Source of the DNA: an uncultured Bacillales bacterium
GTDB taxonomy: Bacteria; Bacillota_I; Bacilli_A; RF39; UBA660
Direction: 5' to 3'
Length of the DNA: 50,198 bases
Assembly (NCBI GenBank): GCA_947306705.1
Contig: CAMZHD010000002.1
Span: forward strand, 1 to 50,198
Each line of letters starts with the position of its first letter. The stretch's first letter is position 1. A program made the translations under genes and the position numbers. The notes under the pieces were generated by a model. It made no database searches. It was not told where the DNA came from and saw only the letters and a list, made by a program, of their open reading frames with translations. This document shows, piece by piece, positions 11,558 through 20,033 of this stretch.

Positions 11558-12352
11558 ATGATAGACTTACAAAAAGCAAGAATAGCATTTAAGGAATATA
11601 TAAGTAATTATGATAATCAGAATGATCCAGGATTCAATTTAAAAGTAGTTCATACATATCATGTAGTTGACAATGCTAATATGATTGCAAAAAAATTAGA
11701 ATTATCGGAAGAAGATACAAAACTAGCAGAATTAATAGGATTATTACATGATATTGGAAGATTTGATGAATTGAAAAATTTAAAAACATTTGATAGTATA
11801 GGAAATGACCATGCTATGTTTGCATCAAAATTATTATTTGAAGAAGGACTTATAACTAAATTAATTGATACAGATAAATACAATCATATTATTAAAAAAG
11901 CAATTGAAAATCACAATAAAAAACAAATAGAAGAAGGATTATCAGATGAAGAATTATTTTATGCTAAAATTATTAGAGATGCAGATAAACTAGATAATTA
12001 TAGAGTAAAGCAAAAAGAAAAAATAGAAGATTTATTTCCAGGTATAGTAAATAGCAAAGAAGAATTAGAAAACAGTCTCATTTCTGATAATGTGTATAAT
12101 GCAGTAATGAGAGAAGAATGCGTAGACATAAAAGATAGAAAGTATCCATTAGATTATTGGGTATGTGTTCTTGCGTTTACATTTGATCTTTATTTTAAAG
12201 AAACACTATTAATAGTAAAAGAAAAAAATTATATAGATATTTTAATTGATAGACTAAATTATAATACTAGTAAAGATAAAATGAATGATATAAGAAATGT
12301 ATTAAAGAATTTTATTGAAAAAAGATTAAATGATGAAAGAATTGATGTGTAA
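11558..12352 (+). CDS. HD-domain phosphohydrolase family protein, 264 aa
   Basis: HTYHV...LLHDIGRF...DADKLD pattern. AGAGGAG SD. Confidence 0.65.
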   Translation: MIDLQKARIAFKEYISNYDNQNDPGFNLKVVHTYHVVDNANMIAKKLELSEEDTKLAELIGLLHDIGRFDELKNLKTFDSIGNDHAMFASKLLFEEGLITKLIDTDKYNHIIKKAIENHNKKQIEEGLSDEELFYAKIIRDADKLDNYRVKQKEKIEDLFPGIVNSKEELENSLISDNVYNAVMREECVDIKDRKYPLDYWVCVLAFTFDLYFKETLLIVKEKNYIDILIDRLNYNTSKDKMNDIRNVLKNFIEKRLNDERIDV

Positions 12353-12368
12353 ATGAAAGGAGATAATT

Positions 12369-13118
12369 ATGAATAAAGAATTATATGATATGATCTTTAA
12401 AAGAAAATCCTTTCATTTGTTTAGAAATATAGGAAATGATCATATTACAGAAGACGAATTAAATGATATTGAGAAAGAGTTCTTGAAATTAAAACCTTTA
12501 GTAAAAGATATAAAAGTACAAATAAAAATAGTAAAGAAAGAGTCTATACTAAGAGGCCAAGAATATTGCATATTATTCTATTCAGAAAAGAAAGATAATT
12601 ATCTACAAAATATTGGGTATATAGGAGAACAATTAGATCTATATTTAGTCTCTAAAAATATTGGTACACTATGGTTTGGAATTGGAAAACCAGAAGAAGA
12701 GCAATTAGATGGATTGGATTTTGTGATTATGATGGCAATTTCTAAAGTCGATTCACCTGAAAAATTTAGAAAAGATATGTATAAAAGCAAGAGAAAAGAA
12801 TTATCAGAAATTTGGAAAGGGGAATCCTATCAAGAAATAGGAAATATAGTGAGATTTGCTCCTAGCGCCTGTAATACCCAACCATGGAAAGTAGAAGCAA
12901 CAAAGAAAGAAATAAAAGTATATAGGTATCGTAAAGAAGGCAAAAGAGGAATCATGCCTAAAGATAAGGTTATTTATTATAATCAAATTGATATTGGGAT
13001 ATTTATATGTTTCTTAGAATTATGTTTAGATCATAATAAGATTGATTATAAAAGAGAATTATATAATGAAGAAAATCATGAAAAAGAAAATAATTTAACA
13101 GCAATCTATAAAATATGA
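12369..13118 (+). CDS. Nitroreductase-fold family protein
   Basis: RKSFHLF near the N-terminus and FAPSACNTQPW, typical of the nitroreductase superfamily. Confidence 0.65.
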   Translation: MNKELYDMIFKRKSFHLFRNIGNDHITEDELNDIEKEFLKLKPLVKDIKVQIKIVKKESILRGQEYCILFYSEKKDNYLQNIGYIGEQLDLYLVSKNIGTLWFGIGKPEEEQLDGLDFVIMMAISKVDSPEKFRKDMYKSKRKELSEIWKGESYQEIGNIVRFAPSACNTQPWKVEATKKEIKVYRYRKEGKRGIMPKDKVIYYNQIDIGIFICFLELCLDHNKIDYKRELYNEENHEKENNLTAIYKI

Positions 13119-14036
13119 ATGCAAATAATTAAGAAAGGAAAGAAAAATATGAAAAATAAATTTGCAATTATTGAAATTGGTAGTTATAATACAAAAACTC
13201 ATGTATATGAAAAAAATAAACTATTATATGAGAATAATGCTACAATTAAATTTAAATCAAACTATAAAGAAAATAATAAAATATTAGAAGATGATTTAAA
13301 AATACTAAATAAAGAAATAGAAAAAGCATTAGAGTATACAGATAATGTTCATATATATGGATGTAGTATTTTTAGAAATATTTCTAAGGAAGAACTAAAG
13401 GAAATTAATGACTCAATCTATGAGAAATATAAATTAAAGATAGAGGTTGTATCGCAAGAAGATGAAGCAAAATATACAGCATTAGGATGCTATTCTAAAA
13501 TTGACTATTCGGGGAATATTTGCGTATTTATTGGTGGAGGAGGTTCCATAGAATTAATCTTTGTAAATAATAAAAAGGTAATTGAAAAACATTTCTATAA
13601 CTTCGGAGTAGTAGATGTTACAAACAAATTTGAAAGTTTAAAAGACGATATACCAACCTGTACGTTTGATGAAGTATATAAGTATGTAGATAGCCTAATA
13701 AATGATATAAAATCAAAAGCAGATGTATTAATCCTAGCAGGAGGAGATCACTTCTATTGGTATAATAATGCGGGATACAAGTTGTTAAAAAATACACTAT
13801 ACAAAAATGAAAAACAACAGTATATGATTACAAAAGAATTAAGTGATCAATATGATAGAGATGCATTAGTAACATCACTAGAAAGAATTAAAAATAATAG
13901 CGATAATCCAAATTGGTTTGATGGATCTAGAGCTATGAAAGTAATTACAAACTTGATATCAAATAAAATTGATGCTAAATACATTATTCCAACTAGAATT
14001 AATATGGAAGATGGAATAAAAGATACATTAGAATAA
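13119..14036 (+). CDS. Short Ppx/GppA-type (ASKHA-fold) phosphatase family protein
   Basis: FAIIEIGSYNTK (phosphate-1 motif) and IGGGGSIEL (DIGGGS-like). An alternative start at ATG 13149 is possible. Confidence 0.55.
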   Translation: MQIIKKGKKNMKNKFAIIEIGSYNTKTHVYEKNKLLYENNATIKFKSNYKENNKILEDDLKILNKEIEKALEYTDNVHIYGCSIFRNISKEELKEINDSIYEKYKLKIEVVSQEDEAKYTALGCYSKIDYSGNICVFIGGGGSIELIFVNNKKVIEKHFYNFGVVDVTNKFESLKDDIPTCTFDEVYKYVDSLINDIKSKADVLILAGGDHFYWYNNAGYKLLKNTLYKNEKQQYMITKELSDQYDRDALVTSLERIKNNSDNPNWFDGSRAMKVITNLISNKIDAKYIIPTRINMEDGIKDTLE

Positions 14037-14107
14037 AGAATTATCAAATAATATATTACATGTATTTAAAATATCGTTTAAGATGAATTAAAAGAATATA
14101 ATAATAT

Positions 14108-14145
14108 AAGAACTCACTGTTTTAGCTTTGAGTTCTTTTATTTAT
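14108..14145 (+). terminator. Rho-independent terminator
   Basis: AAGAACTCA / TGAGTTCTT stem, 12-nt loop, T-rich tail. Confidence 0.65.
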
Positions 14146-14189
14146 AAAGTTTTTAGAATAAAATTTTTACAAAAAACATCATGAAAATG

Positions 14190-14219
14190 TTGTTCAAATT
14201 AGGCGGTTAGTGATATACT
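14190..14219 (+). promoter_or_regulatory. Candidate promoter of the SipW/TasA-like operon
   Basis: TTGTTC (14190-14195), 18-nt spacer, extended -10 TGaTATACT (14211-14219). Confidence 0.5.
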
Positions 14220-14286
14220 TAAATAGTAAAGTAGAATAGTGAGAAGATATCTTTACAACAAACGTTAGAATAAGGGAGGTGAAACA

Positions 14287-14832
14287 ATGAAAGGAGATAA
14301 AAAGATTCTAGCAGTAGCAATTTTAGTACTATTACTAACAGTATGTTTTGGTACTTACGCTATTTATAGAGCATCAGGAAGTGCAACTGGTACAGTTAAA
14401 GCAGCTGCTTGGTCAGTTAAAGTAGATGGAACTGATATTGCATCAGCAAATTATACATTTACTGCTGCCAATATTACATGGACAACATTAACTGGTTACA
14501 ACGATACAATTGCACCAGGTTCTGCAGGATATATTGAAATTCCAGTGGATGCTGATGGATCAGAAGTAGATGTAATTCTTACTGCTGAGTTAGGTTCTGT
14601 AACTGTTCCAAATGGAATGACTGTTGCTTTAGCAGAAGGTGCTGGTTCTCAAACAATTGGTTATTCAGCTACTGAAGGACAAATGGAAAAGAAAGTTAGA
14701 ATCAATATAGCATGGGCTGGTGCAGAATCAGATGATGCTGCAAAAGATGGTACTGATTTAGCTGCTCAAGGTTCTACAATTAGTATTCCAGTTACATTAA
14801 CAGCTAAACAATCATTAGTAGATCATCACTAA
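14287..14832 (+). CDS. TasA/camelysin-like secreted protein with SipW-type signal peptide (putative major fibre subunit)
   Basis: Very strong SD (AAGGGAGGTGA). N-terminus is basic, then hydrophobic, then GTYAIYRASGSATG. Ala/Gly/Thr/Ser-rich mature part. C-terminal W..G...DD...D....G....P..L.A.Q signature resembles TasA/CalY. Codon use differs from neighbours (GGT, GCT, ACT, GTT, TCT). Confidence 0.65.
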   Translation: MKGDKKILAVAILVLLLTVCFGTYAIYRASGSATGTVKAAAWSVKVDGTDIASANYTFTAANITWTTLTGYNDTIAPGSAGYIEIPVDADGSEVDVILTAELGSVTVPNGMTVALAEGAGSQTIGYSATEGQMEKKVRINIAWAGAESDDAAKDGTDLAAQGSTISIPVTLTAKQSLVDHH

Positions 14833-14940
14833 TAATAAGAAATAATATCGTAAAGAGTAATACATATTATTCTTTCGATTAAAGTTTATAAAGGGTTTTG
14901 TAAATTTTAAACGGGAGAATAATTTTTAGGAAGTGAAAAA

Positions 14941-16143
14941 ATGAAGAAACAAGATAATAAAGATAAAAATCAAAAAAGAGATAGAATTATTCAAATCATA
15001 TTAATAATCATAATAATATTATTGCTATTACATAATTGTTCTTTAGTGAAAAATAGAAACAAAGATGAAAATGGTAAAGTAAATATTATTGATATAACAA
15101 GTAATGATAAATGTGAGCAAGATGAAGTAATAGATTGTTTAGAGAATGAAGATAACAGTAAATGTATTGTTCCTGATTTTGTAGGAAAAGATAAGAAAGA
15201 TGTTTTAAAATGGCTTAGTTCTCTATCAAATACAATTGAATTAGAAATTGTAGTAGTAGAACAATCTGATGCGAAAGATGGAACGGTTGTAGATCAAACA
15301 CTAATTGGTTCAAAAGTAAAAGATTTAATTAAGAATAAGAAAAAATTAGTCATTACAATCGTAAATAATGGATCATTAGTAGATTGTGAAAAAGATAGTC
15401 AAAATAGTCAATGCAAATTACCTAACTTTGTAGGAGAAAAAGAAGAAGACGTAGTAAATTGGATGGATGTTCTTGCAAATCATATTAAAGTTAAATATGT
15501 ATATATGGATTCTAAAGAACCAGCTGGAACCATCATTAACCAATCAATCAGCGCTGGAAAAAATGTAAAAGATATTCTATCAGAAGATTTAACATTAATT
15601 ATTTATCTATCAAGAGGAAAAAAAGGGAATCCATCTACAGATGGTTCTATTCCTAGTAAACCATCAGAGCCAGATTCTGGTGAAGAGGAACCAATAACAG
15701 AAGATGACTTCTATGTAAATGATAAAGAAGTAGTAAAATGGGAAGATGAATCTAGTGTTAAAATATTTGAAGATTCAACTCATATTGCGAAAGTAAGAGG
15801 AAAGATTGCTCCTGAAAGTAGCGGTACATATAAGTTTACCGTAAACAATGGAACAAAATATAATTTAAAATATAAGATTACATTTACTGAAACCAATAAC
15901 AACAATATGAATATGAAATTTAAGTTAAAAAAGGGAGATACCTATTTAATAGATCATTACGTATCCTATAACGAGTTAAACATTGAAAATATGACATTAA
16001 ATGTTCAATCATCTGAAGATTATTATCTAGAATGGAAATGGGTAGGAGATAATGATACAAACGATACAACGATAGGTAATAAAGCTCAAAATACAGATAT
16101 AGAATATAATCTAGCAATTAAAGTAGAGGCAGAGAGTATATAA
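14941..16143 (+). CDS. Membrane-anchored protein with two PASTA domains and a C-terminal TasA-like domain
   Basis: N-terminal TM (IIQIILIIIIILLLL). PASTA-like units at 15163-15372 (VPDFVGKDKKDV...DGTVVDQ...LVITIVNNG) and 15412-15618 (LPNFVGEKEEDV...AGTIINQS...LIIYLSRG). C-terminus has GTYKFTVNNG...YYLEWKWVGDNDTNDT...LAIKVEAES. Confidence 0.65.
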   Translation: MKKQDNKDKNQKRDRIIQIILIIIIILLLLHNCSLVKNRNKDENGKVNIIDITSNDKCEQDEVIDCLENEDNSKCIVPDFVGKDKKDVLKWLSSLSNTIELEIVVVEQSDAKDGTVVDQTLIGSKVKDLIKNKKKLVITIVNNGSLVDCEKDSQNSQCKLPNFVGEKEEDVVNWMDVLANHIKVKYVYMDSKEPAGTIINQSISAGKNVKDILSEDLTLIIYLSRGKKGNPSTDGSIPSKPSEPDSGEEEPITEDDFYVNDKEVVKWEDESSVKIFEDSTHIAKVRGKIAPESSGTYKFTVNNGTKYNLKYKITFTETNNNNMNMKFKLKKGDTYLIDHYVSYNELNIENMTLNVQSSEDYYLEWKWVGDNDTNDTTIGNKAQNTDIEYNLAIKVEAESI

Positions 16144-16614: not shown

Positions 16615-17088
16615 ATGAAGAAAATTATTTTTAAATCATTCTTATTAGTATCAGGAGTGGTACTTCTTTCATCTGTAGTACTTACTTTCGCTATTATGAG
16701 AATAAGAGGGAACAGTACTGGATCCATTAAAGCATCAACATGGAGTGTAACAAGAAACTATAGTCAACCAGGAGATTCAATAGAAATCTATAAAGAGGGA
16801 GAAACTGATAGTTATACTTTAACGGTAGAAAGTGCATCAGAGGTAGATGTTAAATACAAAATAATTATTTCGAATCTGCCAACTGGAGTAGAAGTAGATC
16901 TTGATAACACTGGATATGAATCACCAACAAACGGTTCTCTAACCATAGAAAAAACGAATATGATCATTAATTATAATGATTCAGTAAAAACAAAAACACA
17001 TACAATAACTTTTAGAGCGACGAATGCAGCGTCCCCTATAGCAAATCAAGAAATAAATATTGATGTAGAATTTAGACAAGATATTTAA
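16615..17088 (+). CDS. Second TasA/camelysin-like secreted protein with SipW-type signal peptide, 157 aa
   Basis: ATG 16615 with AAAGGAG SD; the track start at 16528 overlaps sipW in another frame. N-terminal motif LTFAIMRIRGNSTGSIKASTWSV parallels the 14287 gene. Confidence 0.65.
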   Translation: MKKIIFKSFLLVSGVVLLSSVVLTFAIMRIRGNSTGSIKASTWSVTRNYSQPGDSIEIYKEGETDSYTLTVESASEVDVKYKIIISNLPTGVEVDLDNTGYESPTNGSLTIEKTNMIINYNDSVKTKTHTITFRATNAASPIANQEINIDVEFRQDI

Positions 17089-17126: not shown

Positions 17127-20033
17127 ATGAAATATAGGCGATATATACTAATGATTGCTCTTTTTGCATTTCTATTCATTTTTTATACTTTTATAGATAA
17201 TTCTTTCTCTATCTATAGAGAAGTTAAAACAGATACAATTAACTTAAGTATTTTAGCTCCAAATAGTGTTCTTGTTACATTTAATCCAAATGGAGGAACA
17301 CTCGCAACAGAAGAGTCTACTAGAGAATTAAATGAGGGAGATGAAATTGGAACTTTACCAGTGCCAACGTATCAAGCACATCAATTTCTAGGATGGTATA
17401 CAGAACAAACAGGAGGAACGAAAATAAAGGAAACAACCATCGTAAATAGTTCAACTACTTATTATGCACGTTGGATTGAAAACGATTCTCCATTAAATTA
17501 TGTATTCTATATACCAGGAGAATGTAGTTTTACATCCACTGGACTACAAAATGGTTCGAATGGAGATTGTATTAGTACAATTAATCCAACAGAGGAAGAC
17601 ATTGACTATACAGAAAGTACATTATCAGCTAAAAGATATATTGATACTGGAGTAGCCGTCTATAACGCAATAAACCATGAAAATGACGTTGAAATAGGAT
17701 TTACAATAGTAAGATATAATTCCAATGAAAATGAATATAGAGCTACTTTAGTCAATACAAAAGCAGAAATAGATAATAGTCAATTAAAATATCCTGGATT
17801 TACATTTAGAAAGAAAGATAATTCAGGTAGTTACGTACTTCAATCAAGAAAAAATTATAGTTCAAACGCAGAAGTAACTCTTTCGCCAGCAGATGTACAA
17901 AGCGTTATTATTTATCGTACAGCCGGAGCAATTTATTATAGTATAAATGGGGGAACAAAAATCAAGGTAAATGATGCATATAATCCTATATTTGATTTAA
18001 ATGCTTGGTTTGGTGCAGCTCCACAAAATGAAGATGCATCAGTTGCACAAAGATTTTTTATTGGTACCTTAAGTAAAATGTATATCAAACTTGAACCACC
18101 TGAGATGATGACAATAACATTTAATCCAAATTATGAAGGGGCAACAACGACAACGAAAGAAGTTGCAAAATCAGGTCCTATAGGAGATCTGCCAACCCCA
18201 ACAAGAGAAGGATTTGCATTCTTAGGATGGTTTACAGAAGCAACCAATGGAACACAAATAGATTCAAATACAATCATTACAACAAATATTACTTATTATG
18301 CTCATTGGATAGAAAGTGTAACAGTTACCCTTCATCCAAATGAAGGGCAAGTTACTCCAACAACTATCACAGTACCAATTAATACAGCAGTAGGTACACT
18401 TCCTACACCAACAAAAACGAATTATACCTTTGCCGGATGGTATCAAGATACGAATTTAACAATTCCAGCAAACTCTGAAACAATTATTACAGAAGATACA
18501 GATTTCTATGCTAAATGGTTACAAAGTGTAACGGTTACATTAAACGCAAATAATGGTACAGTTAGTCCAAGTACAATAAAGGTTGGACAAGGAACTGCAG
18601 TTGGTACACTTCCAACTCCAGAAAGAGAAGGATATACATTTGATGGATGGTATCAAGAACCTGAATTAACAAATCTCGCAACATCAGAAACAATCGTTAC
18701 AGAGAATACCACTTATTATGCAAAATGGATTGAAAATATAACCATTACATTAAATGCAGATGGAGGAACTGTAACTCCTACAACGATTGTAATTCCTAAA
18801 GGAACTGCTATTGGAGAATTACCAGTACCAGAATTGACTGATTACGACTTTGTTGGATGGTATACAGATAATACATATGCAACGCAAGTTACAGAACAAA
18901 CAGTATTTAATGCATCTACTACAATCATTGCAAAATGGGAAGAAACCGTGTATGTTGCTTGTATAGGAAATACATGCTATAACTCAATTCAAAAAGCAGT
19001 TAACGCTGTAACAGCAAATAACACAAAAACAACCATAACAATCATTAGTGATGTTGAGCCAACAGATGTTACAACAATCCCAAGAAATAAATGGGTAGAG
19101 TTAGATATCGGTTCATATACAATATCTACTCCTCTAAATTCATCTTATTCAATATTCAAAAATCAAGGAACATTAGATGTAATTAACGGAACAATTACAA
19201 GTAGAGGTGGATATATCTTTGAAAACCTAAGTGGATCAACCTTAAATATTAAAGGTGGAACATTTACTTATAACAATACAAATCATACTGAAAGCAAGGT
19301 TATTGAAATAAAAGGTGGAACTGTTTATATAACAGGTGGAACCCTTACATGTAATTCAAAAGCAGCAGTCATCAACGTTAACACAGGTGGAACCTTAAAT
19401 GTATCAGGTGGTACAATTAAAGGATTAAATACATTTAAAGGACAAGCTGTATATAATAACGGTGGAACAACAACCGTTAGTGGAACCGCTTATCTAGAGA
19501 ACAATTCACGTGCTGCCGTTGATAACGGTAGAGCTGCTCTACATAATAATGCCGGTACTATGACGATTCTAGGCGGAACAATTATCAGTAATAATAATGC
19601 AGCCGTTAAGAATAATGATATTATGACAATAGGAGATAACACCAATCCAATTGATACAACAACTCCTGTCATGCAAGGAAGTACTTATGGTCTAGAAATT
19701 GCAGATGGTAAGACTGTAACAATCTATGATGGTATCTTCAAAGGAAAAGGAAACACCACAGATAAAGCAATTAATGATGAAAGTTTAGTAACCTTAGATA
19801 ATGCGGAAATTGATCATACAACAGAAACAATTGATAATGAACAATATGATGTTGCTTATCTTGTAGAAACCCTAAACAACAATGGTACAAACTCTAACAA
19901 AGGAAAAGATGAGTCAGAAACAAATGATACACAATCCTTTAAAGAAATGAATTCATTTGGAGAGTTACCAATAACAAAAAAAGAGAATCCTGAATTTCTA
20001 GATGATTTGAAGAAATTAACGGTGGGTAAATAG
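17127..20033 (+). CDS. Large secreted repeat protein, 968 aa: Listeria-Bacteroides repeats, a lectin-like insert and a beta-helix-like region
   Basis: N-terminal TM followed by NSFSIYRE. Five ~69-aa units of the type TFNPNGG...LP.P.R.GY.F.GWY....G......T......YYA.W. GGTxxIxGGT-type repeats at about 19165-19640. Confidence 0.7.
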   Translation: MKYRRYILMIALFAFLFIFYTFIDNSFSIYREVKTDTINLSILAPNSVLVTFNPNGGTLATEESTRELNEGDEIGTLPVPTYQAHQFLGWYTEQTGGTKIKETTIVNSSTTYYARWIENDSPLNYVFYIPGECSFTSTGLQNGSNGDCISTINPTEEDIDYTESTLSAKRYIDTGVAVYNAINHENDVEIGFTIVRYNSNENEYRATLVNTKAEIDNSQLKYPGFTFRKKDNSGSYVLQSRKNYSSNAEVTLSPADVQSVIIYRTAGAIYYSINGGTKIKVNDAYNPIFDLNAWFGAAPQNEDASVAQRFFIGTLSKMYIKLEPPEMMTITFNPNYEGATTTTKEVAKSGPIGDLPTPTREGFAFLGWFTEATNGTQIDSNTIITTNITYYAHWIESVTVTLHPNEGQVTPTTITVPINTAVGTLPTPTKTNYTFAGWYQDTNLTIPANSETIITEDTDFYAKWLQSVTVTLNANNGTVSPSTIKVGQGTAVGTLPTPEREGYTFDGWYQEPELTNLATSETIVTENTTYYAKWIENITITLNADGGTVTPTTIVIPKGTAIGELPVPELTDYDFVGWYTDNTYATQVTEQTVFNASTTIIAKWEETVYVACIGNTCYNSIQKAVNAVTANNTKTTITIISDVEPTDVTTIPRNKWVELDIGSYTISTPLNSSYSIFKNQGTLDVINGTITSRGGYIFENLSGSTLNIKGGTFTYNNTNHTESKVIEIKGGTVYITGGTLTCNSKAAVINVNTGGTLNVSGGTIKGLNTFKGQAVYNNGGTTTVSGTAYLENNSRAAVDNGRAALHNNAGTMTILGGTIISNNNAAVKNNDIMTIGDNTNPIDTTTPVMQGSTYGLEIADGKTVTIYDGIFKGKGNTTDKAINDESLVTLDNAEIDHTTETIDNEQYDVAYLVETLNNNGTNSNKGKDESETNDTQSFKEMNSFGELPITKKENPEFLDDLKKLTVGK
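17268..17474 (+). repeat. Isolated Listeria-Bacteroides (Flg_new-type) repeat unit, coding
   Basis: VLVTFNPNGGTL...FLGWYTEQTGGTKI...TYYARW. Confidence 0.7.
18108..18938 (+). repeat. Tandem array of four ~207-210-bp coding repeats (Listeria-Bacteroides repeat units)
   Basis: Each unit ends in YYA(H/K)W, with ends at about 18308, 18518, 18728 and 18938. Units share GT/GDLPTP..EG(Y/F).F.GW(Y/F). Confidence 0.75.

Follow-up and report, generated by a model that had tools for sequence, protein, structure and literature searches.

A signal-anchored, PASTA-bearing relative of probable fiber subunits encoded beside sipW: a candidate fiber base in rumen and gut Bacilli

The window analyzed here, a stretch of 50,198 nucleotides from an uncultured Bacillales bacterium (assembly GCA_947306705.1, contig CAMZHD010000002.1), contains a cassette of five genes on the forward strand. 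These encode, in this order, a small secreted protein (subunit A), a membrane protein with two PASTA units, a SipW-type signal peptidase, a paralogue of A (subunit B), and a giant secreted protein (Table 1). The second of them, a protein of 400 amino acids (aa) referred to below as the anchor protein, is the subject of this study. Its architecture, its family, and its kinship with the subunits encoded beside it were analyzed, and its candidate role at the base of a fiber was weighed against other explanations.

The anchor protein and its five-gene cassette

In a Pfam scan of the anchor protein, PASTA (PF03793) was the sole family above its cut-off (45.8 bits compared with a cut-off of 23.2; expectation value E = 5.8 × 10−12; two stretches). 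NCBIfam returned only a Stk1 kinase model, matched in its PASTA part with 32.6 bits (cut-off 450), and neither scan detected a kinase or transpeptidase domain. A six-frame search of the window's own genome recovered the same two units, unit 2 at 15415-15570 (29.7 bits) and unit 1 at 15169-15318 (23.3 bits, right at the cut-off). Identity between the two units is 32% (E = 5 × 10−14).

An AlphaFold model of the protein was built from an alignment of 49 homologues (mean predicted local distance difference test, pLDDT, of 69). It showed the PASTA region as two helix-plus-sheet units (pLDDT 75-89), for which Foldseek retrieved S. aureus Stk1 (3m9g, E = 7.9 × 10−5) and M. tuberculosis PknB (5e12, 2kui, and 2kue). 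The model further contained the N-terminal helix, a short strand at aa 48-52, a disordered segment at aa 228-268 (pLDDT < 50), and an all-beta C-terminal domain (C-domain; pLDDT 70-84). The initial annotation had described two PASTA units outside the context of a kinase or penicillin-binding protein (PBP), placed between an N-terminal membrane anchor and a Pro/Ser/Glu linker, and these results bear it out in each of these respects.

Conservation was examined among the 49 homologues. In the strand motif VNIIDI, which was predicted as a strand in this model and in that of a short-form homologue described below, residues N48, I50, D51, and I52 were almost invariant. The Cys-x8-Cys loop ahead of each PASTA unit was invariant, and the same was true, or nearly so, for GKIAPES, YxF, LEWKW, GDxD..D, and the final E.E of the C-domain. 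Motifs of this domain can be written as IAPES/IAPGS, YxFxVxN, INMKYKLKK, YYLEWKW, NDTxIG, and YxLxIxVEAE. The linker differed among homologues in both length and sequence. We also noted that the first cysteine of the C-x4-5-C pair following VNIIDI is lost in the anchor protein of the window and its closest relatives (15094-15120, aa 52-60). The window reads TSNDKC for the consensus TCNxxKC, so that its extracytoplasmic cysteines are odd in number.

The signal peptidase gene is coupled to that of the anchor protein, the stop codon of the latter overlapping the start codon of sipW (TAATG). The peptidase also matches Peptidase_S24/S26. The five repeats of the giant protein were identified by Pfam PF09479 (211 bits, 5 stretches), and no C-terminal transmembrane segment was found in it. 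A regular-expression scan detected no LPXTG-type sorting signal in any of the five proteins. An AT-rich hairpin separates the genes of A and the anchor protein; folding of 14825-14945 gave a minimum free energy of -26.9 kcal/mol (z = -5.55), and 0 of 200 shuffled sequences were as stable. A scan for consensus terminators yielded no convincing match within the operon and passed over this hairpin because its stem contains few G-C pairs. As a partial terminator, the hairpin may keep the ratio of A to anchor protein high.

Table 1. Features of the cassette and of the anchor protein (positions in the window; a hyphen in an N-terminus marks the putative cleavage site)
Feature	Position	Strand	Remarks
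Subunit A, 181 aa, probable major fiber subunit, divergent TasA/camelysin-like	14287..14832	+	N-terminus ...FGTYA-IYRASGSATGTVKAAAW
AT-rich hairpin followed by U5, between gene A and anchor gene	14867..14927	+	possible attenuating terminator
Anchor protein	14941..16143	+	open reading frame of 400 aa
N-terminal signal-anchor helix, aa 7-38	14959..15054	+	AlphaFold-predicted; preceded by Lys/Arg-rich cytoplasmic start
Membrane-proximal strand KVNIIDI	15076..15096	+	conserved; family consensus PTGNVDIFEI, then C-x4-5-C
PASTA unit 1, aa 75-144	15163..15372	+	Pfam PF03793; preceded by Cys-x8-Cys loop (C66, C75)
PASTA unit 2, aa 158-226	15412..15618	+	Pfam PF03793, best stretch aa 159-210; preceded by Cys-x8-Cys loop (C149, C158)
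Pro/Ser/Glu-rich disordered linker, aa ~227-256	15619..15708	+	low pLDDT; variable among homologues
C-terminal subunit-like beta-sandwich, aa 257-400, ~145 aa	15709..16140	+	domain defining the anchor family
SipW/archaeal-type signal peptidase I, 149 aa	16143..16592	+	TIGR02228, 76.1 bits (cut-off 51.85)
Subunit B, 157 aa, A paralogue, probably minor or adaptor subunit	16615..17088	+	N-terminus ...LTFA-IMRIRGNSTGSIKASTW
Giant secreted protein, 968 aa, 5 Flg_new (Listeria-Bacteroides) repeats, candidate tip adhesin	17127..20033	+	N-terminus ...NSFS-IYREVKTDTINLSIL

Three of the five proteins share a SipW-type N-terminus, in which a hydrophobic stretch is followed by T/S-Y/F-A/S-I-Y-R (T[YF][AS]-IYR) and which is kept across orthologues. 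It reads ...CFGTYA-IYRASGSATGTV in subunit A, ...VLTFA-IMRIRGNSTGSI in subunit B, and ...DNSFS-IYREVKTDTINLSIL in the giant protein; for the latter, 16 orthologues, which reach 2,260 aa and include those cut by contig ends, have kept it. The motif resembles GGTYA-LFSD of proteins of the TasA/camelysin family (PF12389) from related small-genome Bacilli (loci L023, L024, and L026), where the annotation of the Joint Genome Institute is SipW-like signal peptide. By inspection, a site of this type (hydrophobic region, then T-[FYW]-A) is absent from the anchor protein, which reads ...LLLLHNCSLVKNR. Judged by this motif, A, B, and the giant protein are predicted to be cut by SipW and the anchor protein to be left uncut. 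A cysteine at the end of the helix (HNC-S) raised the alternative of a lipoprotein. This was rejected as a general feature: the cysteine occurs in 37 of 110 family members, and positions -1/-2 are not lipobox-like.

A scan of genome contigs with a single protein as query found nothing, whereas an alignment-based query found 21 loci bearing relatives of the anchor protein, all in metagenome-assembled genomes from rumen and gut labeled Bacillales, Erysipelotrichaceae, or Bacilli. As far as the contigs reach, the order A, anchor, SipW, B, giant protein was maintained in these loci regardless of the spacer, and the coupling of anchor and sipW genes was kept in related loci. Gene A lay directly upstream of the anchor gene in all 18 loci with sequence at that place. 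The same was seen in two much more distant metagenomic members, where an A-like gene precedes the anchor gene and a SipW gene follows and overlaps it. The placement of the anchor protein in a SipW/TasA-like fiber operon and its membrane tether, as given in the initial annotation, are supported.

The exception among the 21 loci was formed by the two most divergent ones, both from Candidatus Faecimonas (L020:2096-4943 and L021:3278-6125): no SipW gene was seen within the stretch fetched around their anchor genes, and proteins of 204, 158, and 578 aa replace SipW, B, and the giant Flg_new protein. These three proteins have SipW-type N-termini (VTYSSYY, VAYAAYR, and SDSYALFTT). Further variation concerned the peptidase and the giant protein. 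In cassettes of the Big_2 type (L008:2957-3799, L009:8413-9099, L011:8416-9141, and L015:432-1100), the SipW homologue comprises 222-280 aa compared with 149 aa in the window, the extra part being C-terminal. The shortest giant orthologue has 968 aa and the longest more than 2,260 aa. One of them (L001:10217-16804; 2,196 aa, 11 Flg_new repeats) ends in a Y_phosphatase3 domain (PF13350, 65.9 bits), an unusual cargo for a putative fiber tip.

A constant frame with an exchangeable spacer

A search of 1.84 billion cluster representatives with a profile of the C-domain retrieved at least 1,225 clusters (50% identity) at E ≤ 10−3 and 619 at E ≤ 10−10. No Pfam or NCBIfam model was found to cover the domain. 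It is almost always located at the extreme C-terminus, and a typical family protein comprises 200-280 aa. An N-terminal transmembrane helix was present in 110 of the 149 representatives read. In these family representatives, the strand motif followed 7-17 aa past the helix, and the spacer between motif and C-domain, mostly a low-complexity linker, had a median length of 41 aa (range 0-217).

Orthologues in the related loci share a constant frame consisting of (i) a Lys-rich N-terminus, (ii) the transmembrane helix, (iii) the strand motif with two cysteines, (iv) a variable middle, and (v) the C-domain of ~145 aa. The variable middle is formed by two PASTA units in L001-L007, by four Big_2 domains in L009 and two in L018, and by a low-complexity linker only in L010, L012-L014, L016, L017, and L019-L021. 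Across homologues, the number of Big_2 domains in the spacer varied from two to seven. Among the 33 longest representatives, Big_2 was found in 5, PASTA in 4, cadherin-like domains in 3, and Glucodextran_B in 2.

When C-domain sequences were placed in a quick maximum-likelihood tree, the anchor protein of the window fell within a fully supported clade of 14 PASTA forms. Short, Big_2, and other forms surround this clade within a larger one of 56 rows (Shimodaira-Hasegawa-like approximate likelihood ratio test, SH-aLRT, of 96), and short forms dominate the rest of the tree. One genome of the same genus has an open frame of 247 aa with the C-domain; another has none. The family core therefore consists of the transmembrane helix, the short strand motif, a spacer of variable content, and the C-domain; PASTA does not define it, and the PASTA pair is a derived, lineage-specific filling of the spacer slot. 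Since the spacer is mostly free of PASTA, the PASTA forms are derived, and a short form of 247 aa exists within the genus, wall attachment through PASTA cannot be the general mechanism, and on this point the initial annotation was not supported. As PASTA units, Big_2 domains, cadherin-like modules, and plain linkers are equivalent at the same site, their shared task would be spacing.

Within the PASTA clade itself, binding of peptidoglycan by the PASTA pair is possible. The organism has a peptidoglycan wall, and its genome encodes ordinary PBPs with PASTA units (open frames of 718 and 716 aa). We also noted a second PASTA protein outside the classical context in the same genome, an open frame of 646 aa on the reverse strand (locus L027; G000:C24:~12300-14250). 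It has a short cytoplasmic start, several hydrophobic or transmembrane segments, five PASTA units, a Pro/Thr linker, and a cysteine-containing C-terminal domain, and no kinase or transpeptidase domain was found in it. A recent copy from the other PASTA proteins of the genome was considered as the origin of the anchor's units and rejected, since they are only 29-34% identical to those of the 646-aa protein.

Kinship with the probable fiber subunits

The initial annotation had called the C-terminal domain TasA-like. Scans of the C-domain, A, and B against Pfam and NCBIfam returned no family, and a search for PF12389 (Peptidase_M73/TasA) in the whole genome gave nothing above the cut-off (best match 6.9 bits). 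Searches of PDB sequences with phmmer and with profiles (A2, A3, and A4) yielded no TasA and only chance matches, such as designed repeat proteins and tau. Foldseek with the full-length anchor model retrieved PASTA structures and generic sandwiches, and TasA was outside the top 50. A second AlphaFold model was therefore considered, that of the 199-aa short form of locus L019 (100 sequences, mean pLDDT 86.8, predicted template modeling score 0.73), in which the C-domain reached a pLDDT of 93-98.

Indirect comparisons of profiles with hhalign gave stronger results, of which that between full-length anchors and the A family was the most informative. As a comparison set, genuine PF12389 proteins of related small-genome Bacilli (L023-L026) were collected and enlarged to 124, most of them annotated as PF12389. 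The A family matched this set with a probability of 95.7% (E = 9.5 × 10−9, 168 columns) and the B family with 96.0% (E = 4.6 × 10−9), while A and B matched each other with 99% (E = 7 × 10−18). When full-length short-form anchors were compared with the A family in global mode, which includes the hydrophobic signal or transmembrane segment, a probability of 95.1% was obtained (E = 8 × 10−9, 172 collinear columns); B and the anchors gave 75%. The alignment of A and anchors pairs the hydrophobic region of the signal peptide with the transmembrane helix, ATGTVKAAAW with PTGNVDIFEI, IAPGS with IAPgS, and the C-termini with each other, and the spacer appears as one insertion. The strand motif of the anchor was in register with ATGTVKAAAW of A as well as with the AGTLEI-type motif of PF12389 proteins. 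On these alignments, the anchor protein is best described as a full-length paralogue of the fiber subunits of its operon.

A candidate fiber base, its alternatives, and known systems

We give a probability of about 0.5 to the reading that the anchor protein is the membrane-tethered, cell-proximal part of a sortase-independent, SipW-processed, TasA-related donor-strand fiber. Among the readings considered, a role as base or anchor accords best with the SipW/TasA-like operon, the membrane tether, the kinship with the subunits, and the gene position, which is that of tapA. As the anchor protein is without the T[YF]A-IYR site common to A, B, and the giant protein, its signal sequence has probably become a permanent signal-anchor. 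The spacer is an insertion that separates the first strand (VNIIDI) from the remainder of the beta-sandwich.

The fiber could then be assembled as follows. SipW would cut the exported A, B, and giant Flg_new protein and so free their N-terminal donor strands, upon which A, the probable major subunit, and B, which is probably minor, would polymerize by donor-strand exchange in the fashion of TasA. The giant protein would occupy the distal end of the fiber as its tip adhesin; with a donor-type N-terminus and no recognizable subunit body, it could be placed only at a fiber end offering a free groove. At the cell, the C-domain of the anchor is the putative acceptor. It would take the donor strand of the last subunit, thereby ending the fiber and tying it to the membrane. 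Because the anchor has a body and no free N-terminus, it would accept rather than donate a strand. The spacer, whether PASTA, Big_2, or linker, would let this body reach into or through the peptidoglycan. The overlap of anchor and sipW genes suggests that both products are made in matched, low amounts and act side by side, and together with the hairpin downstream of gene A it would be consistent with abundant A and scarce anchor and peptidase.

Several observations speak against this assignment. PF12389 had no match at E ≤ 1 in the anchor, A, or B. Foldseek with the L019 short-form model gave no PDB match at E ≤ 10−3; its top matches were generic nine-strand sandwiches (C. perfringens enterotoxin C-domain, PliG, collagenase PPC/CBD, FlhE, and Cry domain III). 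TasA (5of2) was found at rank 30 (E = 7.1 × 10−3, probability 0.95, template modeling score 0.31/0.32, with the longest alignment, 205 columns), and Ena3A at rank 48. The C-domain alone matched A with an hhalign probability of 73% (83% with a C-domain alignment of 163 sequences), which dropped to 48% against an enlarged A alignment. Compared with the PF12389 proteins directly, it reached only 40% (E = 3 × 10−4, 132 columns), with IAPES/VVPGS, NDT.IG/NN.AQ, and the last strand V.AE/V.A.Q in register, and the full-length anchor 17-19%. The hydrophobic segment may have inflated the global comparison of full-length anchors with A. Furthermore, the system is patchy, the C-domain occurring in 9 of the 151 genomes of the window's order, and with a cysteine at the helix end in about a third of the family, some members could be lipoproteins instead of transmembrane-anchored proteins. 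Finally, the VNIIDI strand might complete the C-domain in cis. Such a fold would leave no open groove, hold the body at the membrane, and let the PASTA units loop out sideways.

With regard to the C-domain, the motifs noted in the initial annotation are real and conserved, and they are linked to TasA indirectly through A. The direct evidence is weak both in the profile comparison and in structure, where 5of2 was retrieved among generic sandwiches at E > 10−3. Applied to the anchor protein, the term TasA-like thus denotes a weak, remote, and transitive relationship that holds only through subunit A, and not membership in the family.

Other roles have to be weighed against that of a fiber base. 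Modeled on TapA of B. subtilis and CapP of B. cereus, the protein could be a nucleator or assembly platform that stays beside SipW outside the fiber and offers the VNIIDI/TGNVDIFEI strand or the C-domain to newly cleaved subunits, thus starting or chaperoning polymerization. The anchor gene has the position of tapA and the same overlap with sipW (PMC10151520), and TapA nucleates TasA through strand donation (PMC9674648, PMC10151520). Moreover, no element outside the C-domain is as conserved as the strand motif, which can be aligned to the region of the N-terminal strand in the subunits and is tightly fixed at 7-17 aa from the membrane, where SipW cuts. We nevertheless regard this role as unlikely. 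The motif is preceded by a transmembrane helix, and without a SipW-type cleavable N-terminus there is no free donor strand with which the anchor could nucleate in the manner of TapA. It also has no sequence relation to TapA, and for nucleation alone there would be no need of a complete, conserved body of the subunit type, carried on a spacer whose length varies greatly.

The version favored in the initial annotation, in which the PASTA units bind peptidoglycan or muropeptides and attach the fiber base to the wall, appears less likely still, as does a variant in which they sense the state of the wall to gate assembly. Both units are genuine PASTA by hidden Markov model and fold, they are well conserved across more than 100 PASTA-form homologues, and the bacterium possesses a wall and classical PASTA-bearing PBPs. 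Some PASTA domains, such as those of PrkC and PknB, bind muropeptides, and the PASTA repeats of StkP serve as a ruler of wall thickness; peptidoglycan binding is, however, not a property of all PASTA domains. The distribution described above tells against this role: most family members lack PASTA, others carry Big_2 or cadherin-like modules at the same site within an identical operon, and the PASTA forms are a derived subclade with a short form in the same genus. Binding would hence be at most an added property of one clade. To an independent surface receptor or adhesin, which would display a ligand-binding C-terminal sandwich on a stalk and be merely co-regulated with the fiber genes, we assign the lowest likelihood. 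Its layout of transmembrane helix, stalk, and distal domain is common among adhesins, and the best fold matches are binding modules (the claudin-binding domain of C. perfringens enterotoxin, the collagen-binding and PPC domains of collagenase, CBM35/36, and PliG), but all of these matches are weak (E > 10−3, template modeling score ≤ 0.43) and generic. The collinear homology to A, which takes in the N-terminal strand, the strict synteny, and the translational coupling to sipW argue against independence, and the operon already encodes a giant repeat adhesin.

Returning to the fiber base, the anchor protein is best read as a positional analogue of TapA and not as its homologue. The initial annotation had proposed that it nucleates or anchors the fiber and functionally replaces TapA. 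Anchoring at the base is retained here as the preferred explanation, whereas neither kinship with TapA nor TapA-style nucleation is, there being no TapA match and no cleavable N-terminus. Tentatively, and with the odds somewhat against it, the cassette as a whole could represent a complete, undescribed type of Gram-positive pilus. It would comprise a SipW-processed, sortase-independent donor-strand fiber, a dedicated tip adhesin (the giant Flg_new protein, attached solely by its N-terminal strand), a terminator-anchor paralogue that keeps its signal peptide as a membrane anchor, and a modular spacer acting as a wall-spanning ruler.

The literature on such fibers covers the structures of TasA and TapA, BsaA, CapP, and the archaeal Abp pili. 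In a search of work on SipW/TasA/TapA fibers, anchors, and PASTA, no description of a signal-anchored subunit paralogue or of a PASTA fusion was found. With no paper and no Pfam or NCBIfam model for it, the domain combination appears undescribed, as the initial annotation had supposed. The tethering of TasA-type matrix fibers to cells is unresolved, the role of TapA is debated, and CapP was described only recently. The present family, with its at least 1,225 clusters, offers a concrete and testable anchor candidate, namely signal-anchored paralogues of the subunits whose genes directly precede and overlap sipW. The arrangement suggests a pilus-like architecture of base, shaft, and tip adhesin in small-genome Bacilli of rumen and gut, and presents PASTA as an interchangeable extracytoplasmic spacer outside kinases and PBPs. 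If the proposed role is true, a signal-anchored subunit paralogue beside sipW could explain the tethering of TasA/BsaA-type fibers generally.

One of the closest known systems is tapA-sipW-tasA of B. subtilis. There, the N-terminal strand of each TasA subunit completes the sandwich of the next, by which the fiber grows (PMC9674648), and TapA starts the fibers by donating its own N-terminus (PMC10151520). Like the anchor gene, tapA (yqxM) directly precedes sipW, its stop codon overlapping the start codon of the peptidase gene (PMC10151520). Both proteins would be accessory, low-abundance, membrane-associated partners of a TasA-type fiber, proposed to be at its cell-proximal start. TapA, however, is cleaved by SipW, provides its free N-terminus as donor strand, and has a complete V-set immunoglobulin/macroglobulin-like sandwich unrelated to TasA (PMC10151520, PMC9245690), whereas the anchor protein keeps its helix, has no cleavage motif, is a paralogue of the subunits, and contains an inserted spacer. 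Apart from the partial PASTA match, NCBIfam gave no match, and hence none to TapA/YqxM.

With TasA, CalY, and camelysin (PF12389), the anchor protein shares the genetic linkage to SipW, a predicted beta-sandwich, and a series of collinear motifs (GT-L/V strand, PG[SD] turn, FxVxN, C-terminal N/D-rich loop, and final xAxQ/E strand). It differs from them in its uncleaved signal-anchor, in the spacer insertion, and in the length of its body (~145 compared with ~230 aa). In PF12389 operons of related small-genome Bacilli (L023:218-703, L024:60-485, and L026:2599-3108, the last on the reverse strand), we noted that a protein of 141-169 aa adjoins sipW. These proteins have an N-terminal transmembrane helix and a subunit-like body (PG.. 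motif, GNEAQG...), with a weak match of 56% to their own TasA-like neighbor. As members of the anchor family they were rejected, homology not being detectable (3-14%), and the arrangement is analogous only. A membrane-anchored subunit paralogue beside sipW may be a recurrent solution.

The sipW-bsaA-bsaB-bsaC operon of C. perfringens likewise combines SipW with two TasA-like paralogues and a large secreted protein with SipW signal (BsaC, with a VWA domain). BsaA fibers of strain 13 are sortase-independent and anchored to the membrane, not to peptidoglycan, and the anchor component was left unidentified (PMC11580942). Different from the cassette, no dedicated transmembrane-anchored paralogue has been described for this operon, BsaA contains isopeptide cross-links, and the large partner carries VWA rather than Flg_new.

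The PASTA units belong to the same Pfam family and fold as the ectodomains of PknB, Stk1, StkP, and PBP2x-type proteins, in which they also form an extracytoplasmic tandem directly after a transmembrane helix. In the anchor protein, however, there is no catalytic domain, each unit is preceded by a Cys-x8-Cys loop, and the tandem sits inside a loop of another domain, where it is interchangeable with immunoglobulin-like modules.

In PapH of chaperone-usher pili and in the basal pilins of sortase pili, a subunit paralogue ends polymerization and fixes the fiber to the envelope, with an adhesin at the tip. The likeness is one of analogy only, as folds and machinery are different and the cassette contains neither usher nor sortase. 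The base of a sortase pilus carries a C-terminal LPXTG, which none of the cassette proteins has; anchoring here would instead use the retained signal-anchor helix.

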